DNA of 61,081 nt from Minisyncoccota bacterium (GTDB lineage: Bacteria; Patescibacteriota; Minisyncoccia; Phycocordibacterales; UBA2100): the NCBI GenBank assembly GCA_043780835.1, contig JAYWCB010000009.1:1-61081 (forward strand), in the 5' to 3' direction. The position numbers were made by a program, and so were the translations under genes. The notes below the pieces were generated by a model. It searched no databases. It saw only the letters and a program-made list of their open reading frames with translations, and was not told the DNA's origin. The first letter of the stretch is position 1; each line of letters starts with the position of its first letter. Below, one piece after another: positions 1,364 through 17,968 of the stretch.

Positions 1364-3073
1364 TTATTTCACGAAGAGTCGCGCTAACCGGATGTCTTCG
1401 AACGAGCGTTCACCCTTGAGGGCTTGATAAATCGGCGTGAGCGCGGTCAGTTTTTTCTTTTTTATAACGGAAACAATAGAAGCGAGCTCTATTTGCTTCG
1501 AGGACGAAAGCAGGTCGCTCAATGCTTCTATCGGGAGCGCCCCCTGTTGTTTCAATTGTTCGAGGTGTGAGACGATCGTGCCCGGTTTGAGACAGCGTTT
1601 GAGGGCGATGTCTTCGAGGGATAATTTCTGTAAGACAAGTTCCAACGTTGCCGCGTAGGTATCGACGCGATCGCCTTTGGCAACGTGCACGTGTGTGCCG
1701 GCCGGATCACCGCCGAGCGCACGTACGAATGTATCGGAGAATGTCGTGTGTTCGACCTCTTCCATTGCTTCAAATCGTTTTCTCGCTGACGCGGAGTTGA
1801 GTTTGAAATGCGTATCTTGTGCGGTGATATCAGGGTGCACCAACAGTGCTCGTTCGTTGTATCCGAGCAGATACAGTCCGGAAAGTTCGCGAACACGGGA
1901 GAGCGCAACGTATCCTTGGCCGTATTCAAACGCTCCCGAGAGATCCACCGCTGCTGAATCCAAGGTCAGTCCTTGGCTTTTATGTACGGTAATTGCCCAG
2001 GCCAGCCGTAACGGGAGCTGCGCTATACGGGCAAGAATCTTACCGCCGTCCGCAATTGACCACTCAGCAGGCTGTACGAGAATGGATCGGCCGGAGTTTG
2101 TTTTCACCACAGGCCCGGCATCGTTGAATTCAACCACTTCTCCGAGCGTTCCGTTTGCATACACGCCCTCGAGACTATTTTTTGTAAACATGACACGTGC
2201 ACCGATCTTGAGCACGAGTGTTTCCGGAGAAATACACCCACGTTTGAGTGCGTCAATCAGGTGTGCACTTCCCTTCGATACCATCTGGTATGTGTGCAGT
2301 TCATCTTCGATAACAGAAAGTCGATGCGTGTTTTCGCGATCAACATCAGCGTTATGCGAATAGAGTCGAGCGGAATGTTCCGGCACGTCTTCGAGATCGG
2401 TAGCCCGCGACGACAAAAGTTCGTGGTGACTATCATCAATTTTTCCGCGTCGAATTGCCGTCAGGAGCGCAAGAAACGGTGCGTCGTTTTGCCGGTGTTG
2501 TTCAGACAGATAGCAGACGATCGGATTTGCCGCGTTCCATGCGGGTGACGCATACGAAAACGAAACGGTGCGCTTTTTTTGTTCCCGGGGTGATCCGCCC
2601 ATCTCTATCGTGGCGATCTCCGGCTGTTCGTTTTTTGTAACCGGCGGTAATTGGTAGAAGTCACCCACAAAAACCACCTGCATGCCGCCCCAGGGTTTCT
2701 CGGTGCGCTTGAGTGCACGAATCGCGCGCTCAGCCATGGAGAGCGTGCGTGCATCGATCATCGAAATCTCGTCGATGATGAGCACACTCGACGCCGCCGC
2801 ACGCTTCACGAGGCGCTCTCGTGAGGTGATCTCATCGAGATCGTATTCGGTGAGATCGCGCTTCACACCGATGCCCGTCCACGCATGGATTGTCATACCG
2901 CCCACGTGTGTAGCAGCGATCCCGGTGGATGCAGTAATCGCCGGTTCGATGCCGCGCTCACGCAGCCATTTCACATATGTATTGATGGTGTGCGTCTTTC
3001 CGCTGCCGGGCTCACCGGTGAGAAACACGTTCGCGCCGGTCTGTAATGCTTTGAGCGCAGTATCTTGCTTCAT
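1364..3073 (-). CDS. PIF1/RecD-like SF1B helicase with C-terminal helix-turn-helix
   Basis: Walker A GEPGSGKT, IIDEISM, GDFYQLPPV, QHRQ, AWAITVHKSQGLTL, GQGYVALSRV; C-terminal TLEL..SLEDIA..R.L..GTIVSHL. Start placed at ATG 3073 (ORF track extends to 3115). Confidence 0.9.
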   Translation of the reverse strand: MKQDTALKALQTGANVFLTGEPGSGKTHTINTYVKWLRERGIEPAITASTGIAATHVGGMTIHAWTGIGVKRDLTEYDLDEITSRERLVKRAAASSVLIIDEISMIDARTLSMAERAIRALKRTEKPWGGMQVVFVGDFYQLPPVTKNEQPEIATIEMGGSPREQKKRTVSFSYASPAWNAANPIVCYLSEQHRQNDAPFLALLTAIRRGKIDDSHHELLSSRATDLEDVPEHSARLYSHNADVDRENTHRLSVIEDELHTYQMVSKGSAHLIDALKRGCISPETLVLKIGARVMFTKNSLEGVYANGTLGEVVEFNDAGPVVKTNSGRSILVQPAEWSIADGGKILARIAQLPLRLAWAITVHKSQGLTLDSAAVDLSGAFEYGQGYVALSRVRELSGLYLLGYNERALLVHPDITAQDTHFKLNSASARKRFEAMEEVEHTTFSDTFVRALGGDPAGTHVHVAKGDRVDTYAATLELVLQKLSLEDIALKRCLKPGTIVSHLEQLKQQGALPIEALSDLLSSSKQIELASIVSVIKKKKLTALTPIYQALKGERSFEDIRLARLFVK

Positions 3074-3099: not shown

Positions 3100-3849
3100 C
3101 TACCCTTTCGCCCACACGATATTGAAGATGCTGCGAAGCGCATCGGCAGTCGCTTTGTCGTCGATGATTGTCGCCACAATGTTCTTGGAATCGGTTATGC
3201 GCACAAACATCTCCGCGATCTCGATTGAGAGATGATTTTCCTGTGCATATTCACCCACTCGCTGTACTTGAATGTGTCTGCCCTCCGCAGCGAACTGCTT
3301 GAATTCCGGAAAATCGCCAATGTCGGTGTCGGGAGTAACAATCTTAAACGAAATATCCTTCTCAACGCAGGCGGGTGTCCATGAACGGAAAAGTGCACGC
3401 ACGCTCTCCTCGGCATCCTCTGACCCGCCGTAAAAGGAATGGAAGGTCTTCCCTTTCATCGAATCGATCTTATAGTCCTGCGCTTCGGTAAAGCCCTTGA
3501 TGCCACTATAAAAATACACTTTTGGCTTCCCCGCGCCGCCCAAGCTCATAAGGCGCGGGATCATTGCCTGCACTGCGTTCAGCTTTCCCTTTTGTTCCGA
3601 GAGGTATTCCGAGAGGTCTTTGGCGGCGTAGATTGCCTTTTTTGCATGCGGAACCTTGAGCACGAGTCCTTTTTTGCGCAGGTCTTCGAGAATTATATAG
3701 ACGGTCGGCTTCTTTACATCGCAGTGCAGTGCAATTTCGTAGGCGGTAGAGCTCTCGAGGCTCAAAAGCGCAACGTACACCTTCGCCTCTTTTTCGGTAA
3801 ATCCGATCTGTTCGAGGTTTTTTGCAATATCTTCCTGCGGCTTTGCCAT
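3100..3849 (-). CDS. TrmB-family transcriptional regulator (N-terminal wHTH)
   Basis: LEQIGFTEKEAKVYVALL..TAYEIA..VKKPTVYIILEDLRKKGLV; V.FYSG..G at the start of the C-terminal domain. Confidence 0.85.
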   Translation of the reverse strand: MAKPQEDIAKNLEQIGFTEKEAKVYVALLSLESSTAYEIALHCDVKKPTVYIILEDLRKKGLVLKVPHAKKAIYAAKDLSEYLSEQKGKLNAVQAMIPRLMSLGGAGKPKVYFYSGIKGFTEAQDYKIDSMKGKTFHSFYGGSEDAEESVRALFRSWTPACVEKDISFKIVTPDTDIGDFPEFKQFAAEGRHIQVQRVGEYAQENHLSIEIAEMFVRITDSKNIVATIIDDKATADALRSIFNIVWAKG

Positions 3850-12224: not shown

Positions 12225-12523
12225 GTTATGTCCTTTACATGTTTATAAAGGACAGTAGTATTACCAACGGTTGGTCTTTACAGGTTTTCGTTGATTCTAA
12301 ATAACGAAATATATAGCGGTACAAATGTATAACGCCAAAAATATAAAGGATGTCCTCCGGCATTCATTGAAAGCAAAGTACTTTGTCCAAAAAGAGATTT
12401 CGTGTTCTTTAAAAGAATGAACGAGACCACAATAAAAGTCGCCTGACGGCGGCTATCCAAAAGAGAGAAATGGGTAGCTACGTCAGGCGATTTTTCTTTT
12501 GGGACCCTAAAACGACTTACTGG

Positions 12524-14002
12524 CTAAGACACGTGATGTTTCTTGCGCAATAGCGCAACTGCAGCCTCGTCTTCGGAAACGCGACGATCCTTTCCTTGTT
12601 CACCCAGTTTCTTGAGAAGTTCGTCGTCCATAGACATCATTTCCAATGCACGGGACTCTAAATATACGGCTGTATTCTTAGCTGGTTCGTCTAAAACCTC
12701 TTCGAGGAGCGCGTGCAAAATCCATCCGATCCGCGGACCGGCAGATTGACCAATTTCCATCAGTCTGACTCCATCAATTTTTAACATCCCTACCGATACC
12801 GGGTCTCGGAGCGCTTCGTCGATCATCGACATGTATTTTCGCAGGCGAAACGGATGAGCCTTGGGTCGTCCGGTGCCGATACGGTCGCACACGCGAAGAT
12901 TGAGCAAATCCTCGATATTTTCCTGTCCTACGCGAGCTATGAGTCGCCGCACTGCCGAGAGTGTTATCTGGTCCGGATCTGAGAAAAACATGTGAGAGCG
13001 AACTAAAAGCACCACCTTTTCTATCAAATCCTTCGGATATTTGAGTTCGGATAGGATTTTCTTTGCCATGCGGGCTGACACCACATCATGCCCGTGAAAG
13101 GTCCAGTCTTTCTTATCCTCGGACCACTCTCGAGTCGCCGGCTTCCCTATATCGTGCAGAAGAGCTGCAAGGCGCACATCAAGCGGCCAGTGTTGATCGG
13201 CTGCATGCTGCAGGCTTCGCAAGAGGTGTTCGAATACGTCAAATGAATGCGCCTGATTTTGGTCGCAACCAATTCCCTCTTCCAATTCCGGCAAAACATA
13301 TTTGATGACCCCGAGTTTTTGAGCAGTGTAAATTGCCTGTAACGGGCGATCTGACTGAATAATGCGGGTGAATTCATCGCGGATACGCTCTTTAGATATT
13401 TTTTCCAACTGCGGTGCGTTTCGCGCTACACCCTCCATGGTTGCTCCGTCGATCGCAAAATCGAGCTCAGCAGCGATTCGGATGGCTCTGAGCATTCGCA
13501 ACGCGTCCTCTTCAAAGCGTGTGTGAGCATCCCCCACCGTTACGAGGACTTTTCGTGCAATATCGTCACGACCACCATGCTCATCAACGAGATTACCCGT
13601 AGAAGGGTCGTAGGCAATCGCATTGATCGTAAAATCGCGTCGCTCAAGGTCGTCGCGTAGCGTGTCGCTGAACTGAATTTCATCGGGATGGCGGGCATTG
13701 GTGTACTTTCCTTCGATACGATACGGAGTGATCTCGACCACTTTCAGCTTCGGGTTCTCGGATTGGGTTACAACACCGACGGTGCCATAACTGTTTTCAT
13801 AAAAAGTCTCCTCGTAGAGGGCTTGAATTTGTTCCGGCTTTGCGTTCGTCGTAATATCCCAGTCTTTCGGTTCGCGACCGATTAAAAGATCCCGTACGCA
13901 ACCGCCGACAAGATAGGCTTCGTACCCCGCCTTGATAAGTGTCGCGTGTACATCAAGAATTTCTTGCGGAATCACGAGCTCCGTTTGTTCCATAGCGTTC
14001 AT
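12524..14002 (-). CDS. cca: CCA-adding tRNA nucleotidyltransferase with HD domain
   Basis: YLVGGCVRD..KDWDITT, DLERRDFTINAIA, RFEEDALRMLRAIR, SKERIRDE, LLHDIGKP, FHGHD. Confidence 0.92.
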   Translation of the reverse strand: MNAMEQTELVIPQEILDVHATLIKAGYEAYLVGGCVRDLLIGREPKDWDITTNAKPEQIQALYEETFYENSYGTVGVVTQSENPKLKVVEITPYRIEGKYTNARHPDEIQFSDTLRDDLERRDFTINAIAYDPSTGNLVDEHGGRDDIARKVLVTVGDAHTRFEEDALRMLRAIRIAAELDFAIDGATMEGVARNAPQLEKISKERIRDEFTRIIQSDRPLQAIYTAQKLGVIKYVLPELEEGIGCDQNQAHSFDVFEHLLRSLQHAADQHWPLDVRLAALLHDIGKPATREWSEDKKDWTFHGHDVVSARMAKKILSELKYPKDLIEKVVLLVRSHMFFSDPDQITLSAVRRLIARVGQENIEDLLNLRVCDRIGTGRPKAHPFRLRKYMSMIDEALRDPVSVGMLKIDGVRLMEIGQSAGPRIGWILHALLEEVLDEPAKNTAVYLESRALEMMSMDDELLKKLGEQGKDRRVSEDEAAVALLRKKHHVS

Positions 14003-14069
14003 TGTACTGCGTTAGTGTGAATTAAATCACGGTAGACCGATGCGGTCGCATCGGTCTTGTTGATTTTTG

Positions 14070-14141
14070 TGCTCCCGGAGGGATTCGAACCCCCAATAAC
14101 AGTTCCGAAGACTGTCGTGATATCCATTTCACTACGAGAGC
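14070..14141 (-). tRNA. tRNA-Arg (anticodon TCG), CCA not encoded
   Basis: Cloverleaf: acceptor GCTCTCG/CGGGAGC, anticodon arm ACAGT-CTTCGGA-ACTGT, T-loop TTCGAAT. Confidence 0.93.
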
Positions 14142-14259
14142 AATGCCTCGCTATACTACCCTACTCTTCCTGATTCACTAACAGCGTTAGTGCTGATACC
14201 GGGAATCTCCTTCGCCTCTCGCTTTGTCGTCGCAGTCGGAATCGATCAAGTGCTCACTA

Positions 14260-14418
14260 GATACGGGGAATCGGCGTAACTCACTAAACGTAGCTTCGCT
14301 CGTTAAGAGGTCACTGCCCTGGCTCAACCCGATGCTCGGGTCTCCGCCTTTCGATTCCCCGTAGCCGACTACAAAAATATAGTCGTACGAAGCTCGCGCT
14401 TCTCCCTCGTTATTTTTG
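14260..14418 (-). repeat. tRNA-Gly-associated structured element, copy 1
   Basis: Homologous to 17812-17968 (shared CGGCGT.ACTCACTAAAC, GGTCACTGCCCTGGCTC, CCGATGCTCGGG, CTCCGCCTT, ACTACAAAAATATAGTCGT); arms match the adjacent tRNA. Confidence 0.85.
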
Positions 14419-14489
14419 TGCGGATACGGGGAATCGAACCCCGATCCCGTCCTTGGCAAGGACGTGTTCTACCACTAAACCATATCCGC
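14419..14489 (-). tRNA. tRNA-Gly (anticodon GCC), CCA not encoded
   Basis: Acceptor GCGGATA/TATCCGC, CGTCC-TTGCCAA-GGACG, T-loop TTCGATT. Confidence 0.95.
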
Positions 14490-14637
14490 ATTATGTTACT
14501 CACCTTCTCAAACCTACTTCCAGGCTGAGTATCATCCATCGAAGCCATATCCGCGCATACACACCGCTTCAATGGCTGGATTATACAGCAGTCGTTTACT
14601 CCAGCAATATTTCATCCCCCATTCCCTATCAGTTTCG

Positions 14638-15627
14638 CTAATTGTTTTCCTCGGTCTTTGTAATCACGGTCTTTTTCTCCTCTGGTAGCGCCATAACCGG
14701 TCGCATGACGGGGTTTGTCCGATATGCACTGTAAAGTCCGATTGCTGCAGCAACGAGGAGGATTACCGGAATGAAATAACTCAATCGGCAACCCGACTCG
14801 AAGTGCCAGAAAAGCAACAGTGCAACGAGTGGAACCCCGATCAATATTGCAGGTAATGCGCCGTGCCGAAGTGCGAGCGCAGGCTCCGAGAGCCCTACAA
14901 ACGCGGTAATCACAAAGAATATTGCCAGCAGGATAAACCACAACTGATACGAGCCGTTTTTGGAGCACATCGTTGCAATAAGGCTTCCGATAGTAGACGT
15001 AGACGATGTTGTGCCCACCAAAGAAGTCGGACGTGAAACTTGACCCTCGTTTGTGGCTCCGTGTGAGGCGCGATGAATTACCGGCGTTTTTACATGTGTC
15101 TCAGGCATAGACCCTGTACCGTTCAAAACCGTTGAGCTCGCTGAGCTAATAGGTGCAGGCGAAACTGCCGCGGGGCTACTGGTCTCAATGGCCCCCTTCG
15201 CATCTGTTGTGAAAGAAACCTGAGAAAGACAAACCGGTGCATTTGGCAGTGCAGAAAGCAGCGTAATGGTTACAGGAAGTTTCCCGTCAATTTTAGCAGT
15301 AGTGTCTATATGGAGGCGTAATGATCCGTCGGGATCAATGCGACGTGTCATGTAGCTAAAAGGTATCGATACATCCCCTGCCGCCCCGAGCACACCCACA
15401 TAGGCAGGGTCGGATAACACGATATCAAATGAGTCGAGTTCCCCATCATAGATATACGGAGTAACGCTCTTTACAAATAGTGGTGCACAGGAGGATCCAC
15501 CTTGGGGCAGGACTTGTTTAGTAATCACTCCGGCACCGGCAGCTGCAGCTAGTGCAGGGGTTGAAAGCAACATGAATGCTGCAAAGGTTGCGACGATGCC
15601 TCGCGATACGCGGGATGCCGTGTTCAT
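14638..15627 (-). CDS. Hypothetical exported/membrane protein
   Basis: Signal-peptide-like N-terminus, Ser/Thr/Pro-rich linker, three C-terminal hydrophobic segments. Confidence 0.7.
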   Translation of the reverse strand: MNTASRVSRGIVATFAAFMLLSTPALAAAAGAGVITKQVLPQGGSSCAPLFVKSVTPYIYDGELDSFDIVLSDPAYVGVLGAAGDVSIPFSYMTRRIDPDGSLRLHIDTTAKIDGKLPVTITLLSALPNAPVCLSQVSFTTDAKGAIETSSPAAVSPAPISSASSTVLNGTGSMPETHVKTPVIHRASHGATNEGQVSRPTSLVGTTSSTSTIGSLIATMCSKNGSYQLWFILLAIFFVITAFVGLSEPALALRHGALPAILIGVPLVALLLFWHFESGCRLSYFIPVILLVAAAIGLYSAYRTNPVMRPVMALPEEKKTVITKTEENN

Positions 15628-17789: not shown

Positions 17790-17811
17790 GTGCGGATTAT
17801 ACGGTATTTGC

Positions 17812-17968
17812 AATAGGAGAAACGGCGTGACTCACTAAACTCACTTCCGTTCTTTAAGTGGTCACTGCCCTGGCTCGTTCCGATGCTCGGGGCTCCGCCT
17901 TCCGATCCTCCTATTCCACTACAAAAATATAGTCGTTCAACACTCGCGTGTTGAGCTCGTGATTTTTG
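17812..17968 (-). repeat. tRNA-Gly-associated structured element, copy 2
   Basis: Homologous to 14260-14418; arms match the adjacent tRNA-Gly(TCC). Confidence 0.85.

Follow-up and report, generated by a model that had tools for sequence, protein, structure and literature searches.

What occupies the trailer of the tRNA-Gly(GCC) gene in a Minisyncoccota bacterium, where the 3′ end of the tRNA is repeated once in reverse and once in the forward sense? The gene lies in a stretch of 61,081 nucleotides (nt) that we analyzed as a whole and refer to as the window (GenBank assembly GCA_043780835.1, contig JAYWCB010000009.1, positions 1 to 61,081), and the 276-nt spacer between it and the neighboring tRNA-Arg(UCG) gene holds an arm, a tail copy, and hairpins. 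The best explanation is that positions 14255-14417 (unit A, 163 nt) comprise one intact unit of a non-coding, structured cassette family that resides in tRNA trailers of Paceibacteria/Kaiserbacteria-type bacteria of the candidate phyla radiation (CPR) and is built on the plan of RtT (RF00391, rttR), an RNA that Escherichia coli encodes in its tyrT operon. Our fuller reading, to which we assign a probability of about 0.58, is that unit A is co-transcribed as a structured RNA, is framed by tRNA-tail mimicry, and turns over by recombination in the tail repeats. Unit A, its paralogue (unit B), and both of the above tRNA genes lie on the minus strand; loci of relatives are labeled L001, L002, and so on.

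Unit A consists, in transcript order, of a leader, the arm, a core, and the distal tail copy (Table 1). The arm (14350-14367) is complementary to positions 14421-14438 of the tRNA at 17 of 18 nt, and our repeat analysis showed the distal copy (14260-14273) to be identical to positions 14423-14436 (14/14). The arm and the distal copy can in turn form a perfect 12/12 helix (14262-14273 with 14352-14363), which is the 12-bp helix P1. A preliminary description, made from the sequence alone, had listed the same parts, namely the tRNA, two small hairpins, an 18-nt arm matching at 17/18, a core, and a 14-nt copy, and we recovered each of them where it had placed them. The complement of the arm matches tRNA-Gly(GCC) at 17 of 19 positions and other tRNAs at no more than 12 of 19. 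Furthermore, a third, weaker tail copy (12/14) is present at 14195-14208, and the 14-mer, allowing up to two mismatches, occurs at six sites in the window versus 0.59 expected, a count reached by none of 100 shuffles. Within the unit, the core junction bases GAAAGGCGGA, GAGCC, and UUAGUGAG are conserved, and the unpaired AACGAG and CGACUAU of the leader are constant across nine leaders. The spacer as a whole comprises three layers, that is, the intact type-1 unit, a type-3 3′ remnant, and a type-2 3′ remnant, followed by a native spacer, whose −10-like TAGTAT appears as TAATAT or TAAGAT in relatives. Neither tRNA-Gly(GCC) nor tRNA-Arg encodes a full CCA, a single C following the discriminator in each. 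The open reading frames across the unit (14187-14459 and 14369-14572, minus strand) overlap the tRNA gene and are not credible genes.

The preliminary description had also spoken of two copies, and the second is indeed present behind tRNA-Gly(UCC), at 17806-17967, with arms that match the UCC tRNA. Units A and B are 86% identical over an 84-nt BLAST match and ∼85% identical over the core proper. The arm of unit B pairs with the tRNA-Gly(UCC) tail at 19 of 19 positions (two as G-U), and its distal copy follows the UCC tRNA and not the GCC tRNA. A covariance model built from five type-1 copies (R1) scored 93-131 bits on these five and detected no further copy in the window beyond A and B, even with filters switched off. 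In relatives, the type-1 core lies behind tRNA-Gly(GCC) in L038, behind tRNA-Pro(UGG) in L010, and within an array in L001. The cognate tRNA was the best arm fit in all four type-1 copies located directly behind a tRNA, so that the matching of arms to the adjacent tRNA, which the preliminary description had asked to be scored, holds in these copies. In a metagenome scan, the strict type-1 pattern matched once, in L038, where the type-1 unit is fused to a complete type-3 core. Unit A and the L038 unit are 98% identical in the leader and 91% identical in the arm and core, versus 63-74% in the flanks; this excess over the flanks indicates that the cassette is under strong constraint or was recently exchanged.

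Behind unit B, directly before the ATG of a peptidase gene, a remnant reading ACCGTATAATCCGCAC (17790-17805, minus strand) is nearer to the tRNA-Gly(GCC) tail than to the UCC tail. A type-1 remnant with a GCC-type tail likewise lies behind tRNA-Gly(UCC) in L002. Such remnants suggest that the UCC tRNA was formerly followed by a GCC-type unit, and the L002 case implies that units move between tRNAs.

Two folds compete for the arm. In the first, the core is closed by the helix of the arm with the tail copy; here, 92.3% of the cells are paired, eight pairs show compensatory change, and only 0-1 of 500 shuffles were as good. In the second, the tRNA tail, leader, and arm form a rod, which we assessed in nine class I copies (A, B, L038, L018, and L022 behind tRNA-Gly, and L001, L002, L003, and L006 behind tRNA-Arg). 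The rod is 96.9% paired, 15 of its 33 pairs are changed on both sides, and none of 500 shuffles was as good; moreover, its covariation extends to leader pairs that have no tRNA origin, and its apical hairpin covaries. In the folding models, the pairings of the arm with the tRNA and with the distal copy are mutually exclusive, as had been proposed. Constrained folding placed the two states of copy A almost level (−103.2 kcal/mol for the rod versus −103.8 kcal/mol for the closed junction), whereas in copy B the tRNA pairing wins (−94.5 versus −80.2 kcal/mol). Since the tRNA 5′ strands freed in the rod pair with the distal tail copy, four segments can swap partners.

The substitution pattern bears on whether RNA or DNA folds. 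Across ten type-3 copies, 24 of 38 pairs are changed on both sides, there are 17 G-U cells versus one A-C cell, and two columns alternate between G-U and A-U. This G-U bias points to folding of the tRNA-sense strand, in a manner typical of RNA. The rod contains three G-U cells versus no A-C cells. On the minus strand, we found no terminator-like site between tRNA-Gly and unit A. A TATAAT-like leader hexamer is conserved, and the TATATT of the leader could be a −10 box, yet the hexamer doubles as a strand of the A-run:U-run helix, and a conserved −35 element is lacking. A search of RNA runs gave no match to the window; for the relatives, it yielded tRNA words only, plus one soil metatranscriptome contig. 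This low-depth contig (run X35) is ∼85% like a type-3 core (L018, 5722-5784) and, while DNA carry-over is possible, it gives a weak hint that type-3-like cores are transcribed somewhere.

As a yardstick, we used the tyrT-tyrV locus of E. coli K-12 (L039, 1286709-1287236). The preliminary description knew of no named family with the layout of unit A, a statement that has to be withdrawn, as RtT behind tyrT/tyrV combines an internal arm, a multi-stem core, a terminal tail copy, and the same alternative pairing. Like unit A, RtT lies behind a tRNA gene, within its trailer and in the same orientation. Each 178-bp RtT unit contains a 22-nt arm, 64-67 nt behind the tRNA, that is 86% (19/22) complementary to the T-arm of tRNA-Tyr. 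The Rfam consensus has a closing helix, GGGGAAGG/CCUUCCCC, and then CCACCACCA, which equals the tRNA tail, and the unit ends in AUCCUUCCCCCACCACCA, a copy of the neighboring tRNA 3′ end, as does unit A at 14260-14273. In both cases, the multi-stem core is closed by the tail copy and the arm, which is complementary to the T-stem 3′ strand. When tyrV was folded with one unit, the same strand swap appeared, with the arm on the real tRNA and the tRNA 5′ strand on the tail copy. Unit number varies between E. coli strains, at 1-10 places per genome. RtT is reported to be released as an RNA from tRNA operon transcripts, and homologs near tRNA-Asn and tRNA-Lys, in Pasteurellaceae, have been detected on Northern blots (PMC4986893).

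The CPR units differ from RtT in that they (i) comprise at least three core types and several leader types, in mixed combinations; (ii) occur behind many tRNAs with re-matched arms, and also behind a non-tRNA hairpin; (iii) have no Tpr-like small open reading frame; and (iv) have tail copies without CCA, since it is not encoded in the tRNA genes here. Furthermore, the window holds one intact unit with remnants, rather than near-identical tandem units. The element is best filed as a new, diverse, CPR-wide form of the RtT kind of tRNA-trailer RNA cassette. RtT has so far stood alone as a curiosity of the tyrT operon in E. coli, its role described only tentatively, and here the same design, a folded core framed by reversed and forward copies of a tRNA tail, recurs in distant ultra-small bacteria. 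The CPR version has exchangeable core and leader types, arms adapted to each tRNA and even to a non-tRNA hairpin, and fast turnover between relatives, and it thus offers comparative leverage on the roles of trailer RNAs, on the use of tRNA-end mimicry, and on how arms are matched to a new neighbor. Annotators, too, may take such stretches for integration scars or tRNA pseudogenes. The short motifs GCGAGAG and GGCGAAG, beside a GC-rich hairpin, are common to the RtT core and the CPR type-2 module (window 14190-14234), which is too little for homology.

Table 1. Positions of the trailer unit, its paralogue, and surrounding features (window positions unless a locus label is given).
Feature	Positions	Strand	Evidence
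tRNA-Gly(GCC), intact, gene without encoded CCA	14418-14489	−	ARAGORN; Rfam tRNA, 71.4 bits
tRNA tail segment S (3′ part of T-loop, T-stem 3′ strand, acceptor 3′ strand), partner of the arm in the rod	14421-14438	−	Inverted repeat I1, 17/18; rod covariation, 9 copies
Class I leader	14368-14417	−	Alignment of 9 leaders; folds; compensatory pairs in A-run:U-run helix and hp1
Leader helix, A-run with U-run	14411-14419 with 14371-14379	−	Compensatory pairs
Small hairpin hp1, GCGA loop	14389-14402	−	Fold prediction
Second small hairpin	14368-14387	−	Fold prediction
Arm X′, 18 nt, complementary to tRNA tail and distal copy	14350-14367	−	Repeat analysis
Type-1 core, 76 nt, three-way junction	14274-14349	−	Minimum-free-energy and centroid fold; RNAalifold on 5 copies; model R1
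Core P2 hairpin, GCA loop	14321-14348	−	
Core P3 domain	14274-14319	−	
Distal tail copy X, 14/14; 3′ strand of closing helix P1, downstream junction repeat of the unit	14260-14273	−	Repeats D1, I3
Type-3 cassette 3′-end remnant, GAGCACTTGATCGATTCCGAC (relatives: CGAGCGCTTGACCGATTC)	14235-14255	−	By-eye comparison with type-3 copies, unscored
Type-2 cassette 3′-module remnant, ending in third tail copy and GCAC	14190-14234	−	Repeats D1, D3; homologous ends in L002, L003, L005
Native spacer before tRNA-Arg, with −10-like TAGTAT (14153-14158)	14142-14189	−	Sequence reading; relatives
tRNA-Arg(UCG)	14069-14141	−	ARAGORN
tRNA-Arg trailer: leader-like A-run/hairpin/U-run (CAAAAAUCA, 11-bp hairpin, UGAUUU), no arm or core	14024-14066	−	Partial R2 match; terminator-like site
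CCA-adding enzyme gene cca, directly after tRNA-Arg	12524-14002		
Conserved hairpin, ~65 nt, with U-run, downstream of cca, without insert in the window	12432-12500	+	
Paralogous cassette B, behind tRNA-Gly(UCC) (17968-18039)	17806-17967	−	BLAST of spacer against window; R1
B arm	17901-17919	−	
B tail copy	17810-17825	−	
Older GCC-like tail remnant behind B	17790-17805	−	
Non-tRNA-site cassette, L004	~2170-2429		
Non-tRNA-site cassette, L006	7555-7679	−	
Non-tRNA-site cassette, L011	7535-7664	−	

In the reading we prefer, the unit would be transcribed as part of the tRNA-Gly precursor. The tRNA would fold first, and the tail copy would then capture the arm, so that the resulting helix reproduces the acceptor/T-stem stack of the tRNA together with its 3′ end. 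Cleavage at the tail copy by the enzymes that trim tRNA ends might therefore follow and set free a stable cassette RNA, as reported for RtT, and the rod would be a competing fold of the unprocessed transcript. At the DNA level, the repeated tails and the T-loop-derived flanks of the core would serve as short recombination sites, through which units may be added in front of older ones, deleted, or swapped between tRNAs. tRNA-like 3′ modules excised by tRNA-processing enzymes are represented by the mascRNA of MALAT1 and by viral tRNA-like structures. Like these modules, unit A has an appended acceptor/T-stem-like helix that could recruit RNase P, RNase Z, or the CCA-adding enzyme; unlike them, it does not mimic a cloverleaf or elbow (ARAGORN, Rfam tRNA model), and its helix copies one specific neighboring tRNA.

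Several observations weigh against this reading. With regard to RtT, RF00391 did not match the element either at the gathering score or at E values up to 10, and R1 scored only 7 bits on the E. coli RtT locus, which is no match; the likeness is one of design, and descent from a common ancestor is not implied. With regard to RNA, we infer the co-transcription, the processing, and the stable RNA of unit A alike. The G-U signal is weak in type 1 alone (7 G-U versus 5 A-C cells), and the type-3 cassettes of L003, L004/L006, and L005 start with long GC-rich hairpins and T-runs that resemble terminators and would block co-transcription. With regard to mimicry, the tail copy of unit A ends after 14 nt without the last three acceptor bases and is thus a poor mimic of a full tRNA end. 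Moreover, the tRNA-Arg cassettes described below retain their match to the tRNA along with a shrunken distal copy, which is not predicted if the arm is a P1 strand only. Finally, the reading offers no account of how both arms are re-matched to a new tRNA or non-tRNA flank. Re-matching may proceed (i) by recombination at the T-loop-derived sequences that flank every core, (ii) by hairpin-templated correction of imperfect inverted repeats, or (iii) by true target-templated insertion.

Relatives document the turnover. In 30 Paceibacteria/Kaiserbacteria-type loci, collected by a protein-anchored search with the CCA-adding enzyme, the order tRNA-Gly(GCC), tRNA-Arg(UCG), cca is common to many, with or without cassettes, and tRNA-Arg is inverted in about a dozen. 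Eight of these relatives (L008, L009, L010, L014, L017, L019, L025, and L027) have a Gly-Arg spacer of only 9-39 nt and no cassette, so that the empty sites sought in the preliminary description exist; L010, L019, and L025 have the same tail segment as the tRNA-Gly of the window. In other relatives, the spacer is 123-1126 nt long and holds cassettes of at least three core types, sometimes stacked, which share the layout of leader, arm, core, and tail copy. Among ∼100 tRNAs, tail copies matching at 14 or more of 16 positions occur downstream of 11 in direct and of 10 in inverted orientation, and upstream of none, which served as the background control. Direct-repeat length differs among copies, between 8 and 19 nt. 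Contigs of the source study (Logan) contained no informative variant.

The arm of the tRNA-Arg cassettes in L001-L006 complements the tRNA at 16 of 16 positions and tracks an acceptor-stem change. Their leader and core visibly differ between loci, and the distal copy spans only 8-9 nt; what persists here is the match with the genuine tRNA tail, whereas a long closing helix with the distal copy is gone. These closest relatives hold full cassettes where the window has the tRNA-Arg trailer at 14024-14066, which is either the residue of a unit that lost its arm and core or a native terminator from which such leaders derive.

Cassettes also occur away from tRNAs. The preliminary description had taken such homologs as a sign against its reading, and a related core does lie behind a terminator-like hairpin in L004, L006, and L011; its arm, however, is complementary to the U-run flank over 14-19 nt, so that the rule of matching is widened, the arms following whatever lies upstream. 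The U-run flank is directly repeated over 8 nt in L006 and 11 nt in L011, and the L004 core is ∼85% identical over 97 nt to the core of the L001 tRNA-Arg cassette. At the same hairpin, L005 has a rod with no core, and L002 has a different hairpin element of ∼130 nt; the hairpin is a hot spot for inserts. The window retains the hairpin between clusters of DnaA-box-like TTATCCACA and the end of cca. All 14 relatives in which our motif search could find the hairpin retain it, and no Rfam family matches it.

These sites bring up the possibility that the unit is a protein-less, non-autonomous mobile DNA element, in which a small circle or folded single strand, with the arm as its target-matching sequence, would be inserted by a recombinase acting in trans. 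The hairpin of arm and tail copy would be a duplex replica of the target, landing at tRNA 3′ ends and other hairpin-ended sites, and the conserved fold would serve recombination with no need for an RNA function. Folded single strands of this kind can mimic a duplex target in integron attC sites, in the folded attP of CTX phage, and in other Xer-exploiting elements. Empty and filled sites, stacked units, and 5′-truncated older units all fit, as do the related core with flank-matching arms behind the non-tRNA hairpin and the GCC-type tail copy behind tRNA-Gly(UCC) in L002; the order tail, leader, reversed tail, core, tail would moreover be expected from a single strand exchange between a folded circle and its target. 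A single Xer-type tyrosine recombinase gene is present 4 kb away, but it looks like an ordinary chromosomal gene, and no recombinase is linked to the cassettes. Nor was a circular form seen, or a copy in phage, plasmid, or viral collections. The targets are too diverse for one sequence-specific recombinase, the direct repeats vary in length, and the conserved core junction bases and G-U/A-U stem exchanges are typical of RNA and not needed in an att site. We therefore regard this explanation as unlikely. Of the earlier proposal of a mobile insert at the tRNA 3′ end, the tail duplication that bounds the unit and the empty sites in relatives stand, while the arm is only a putative integration guide.

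Prophages and islands that insert at tRNA 3′ ends duplicate the tRNA tail as attL and attR, and unit A resembles them in the direct repeat of the T-loop-to-3′-end segment that bounds the insert, in the intact tRNA, and in the empty sites of relatives. It differs in being a 163-nt insert with no integrase or credible open reading frame, in its conserved folded core, and in repeating the att segment in reversed orientation as well. Integron cassettes form arrays of short units that each end in an imperfect hairpin site, the outer box of attC repeats the junction sequence of the previous unit, and the newest unit lies beside a fixed site, features in which the CPR units are alike. However, the arms of unit A are tRNA-tail sequence with no GTTRRRY core sites, no attI or integron integrase is present (the Xer-type gene, the only recombinase seen, scores 122.7 versus a cut-off of 265 for the integron-integrase model), and the “cargo” is a 50-nt hairpin instead of a gene, with a conserved, RNA-like central part. 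The features of a miniature inverted-repeat transposable element are absent as well, as the reversed arm lies inside the unit, whose ends do not form inverted repeats, and the direct repeats are not of fixed length.

A more speculative thought, which we rate as rather improbable, is that the cassettes, and perhaps RtT too, are protein-less elements that copy both arms from the 3′ end of whichever RNA gene they land behind, be it a tRNA or a terminator tail. If this were true, insertion would be addressed by base pairing or templated by a hairpin, with no sequence-specific recombinase, and each unit would deliver a tRNA-specific structured RNA, in which case both the arm acquisition and the RNA role would be new biology.

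The unit may alternatively act in cis as an RNA switch, in which the A-run is a toehold and the arm displaces the tRNA 5′ strands, so that tRNA-Gly stays trapped in an inactive rod if neither 3′ processing nor sequestration of the arm by the decoy tail copy happens beforehand; the output of tRNA would thereby be tied to processing capacity. The near-equal energies of the two states in copy A and the stability of the rod in copy B would suit a switch, as would the covariation of the rod, including its non-tRNA part, the perfect match of the arm with the genuine tRNA tail in cassettes whose decoy copy shrank, and the presence of cca in the same gene string. However, the tRNA is transcribed and able to fold before the arm exists, many relatives lack the element at the same tRNA, the same design stands behind a non-tRNA hairpin, the elaborate conserved core is left with no role, and cca synteny is conserved with or without cassettes, all of which makes a switch quite improbable. 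Inert debris, in the form of decayed tRNA duplicates or att scars of integrase-borne islands with neither structure nor function, is scarcely credible, since, in spite of plain displaced tRNA-Pro 3′ fragments in L006 and L022 and the decayed remnants that follow unit A, the core shows conservation and covariation between different tRNAs and genomes, integrase recombination does not yield a reversed arm, and the cassette is far more conserved than its flanks; the element is not an integration scar.

Searches for known systems complete this picture. Within 13950-14650, cmscan against Rfam, at the gathering score and at E values up to 10, returned only the two tRNAs, the rest being at chance level, with no group I or group II (class C) intron, T-box, tmRNA, or known tRNA mimic; thus, as far as the proposed Rfam scan goes, no known family explains the element. 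ARAGORN found no tmRNA. The type-3 motif was absent from viral contigs, and distant blastn searches of phage and plasmid collections gave no match. A full-text literature search yielded no account of such cassettes in CPR bacteria, and recent preprints that treat tRNA mimics and noncoding clusters deal with other families. Four further candidates were rejected: a plus-strand tRNA pseudogene ending at 14368, which has no T-stem partner; a retroviral-type primer-binding site, as the arm ends where the gene-encoded sequence ends and in no case extends over CCA; a T-box-like sensor for cca, as cassettes also occur at tRNAs with no cca behind them and synteny is independent of cassettes; and a hammerhead or other self-cleaving ribozyme, for which there is no Rfam match.

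Two smaller duplications of tRNA sequence were also observed. Plain tRNA-Pro 3′ fragments, with no arm or core, lie 34-44 nt behind tRNA-Pro in L006 (∼3190-3220) and L022 (∼2490-2520, minus strand); the L022 fragment derives from a different tRNA-Pro variant and spans the whole T-arm. Such displaced fragments resemble a replacement, on a tiny scale, of the tRNA 3′ half. On the other side of the tRNA-Gly(GCC) gene, its first 13 nt are repeated at 12 of 13 positions ∼65 nt upstream (14542-14554, minus strand), as a partial 5′ duplication, and the same 5′ repeat, including the preceding ATAAT-like box, is present in L038 (1818-1832).

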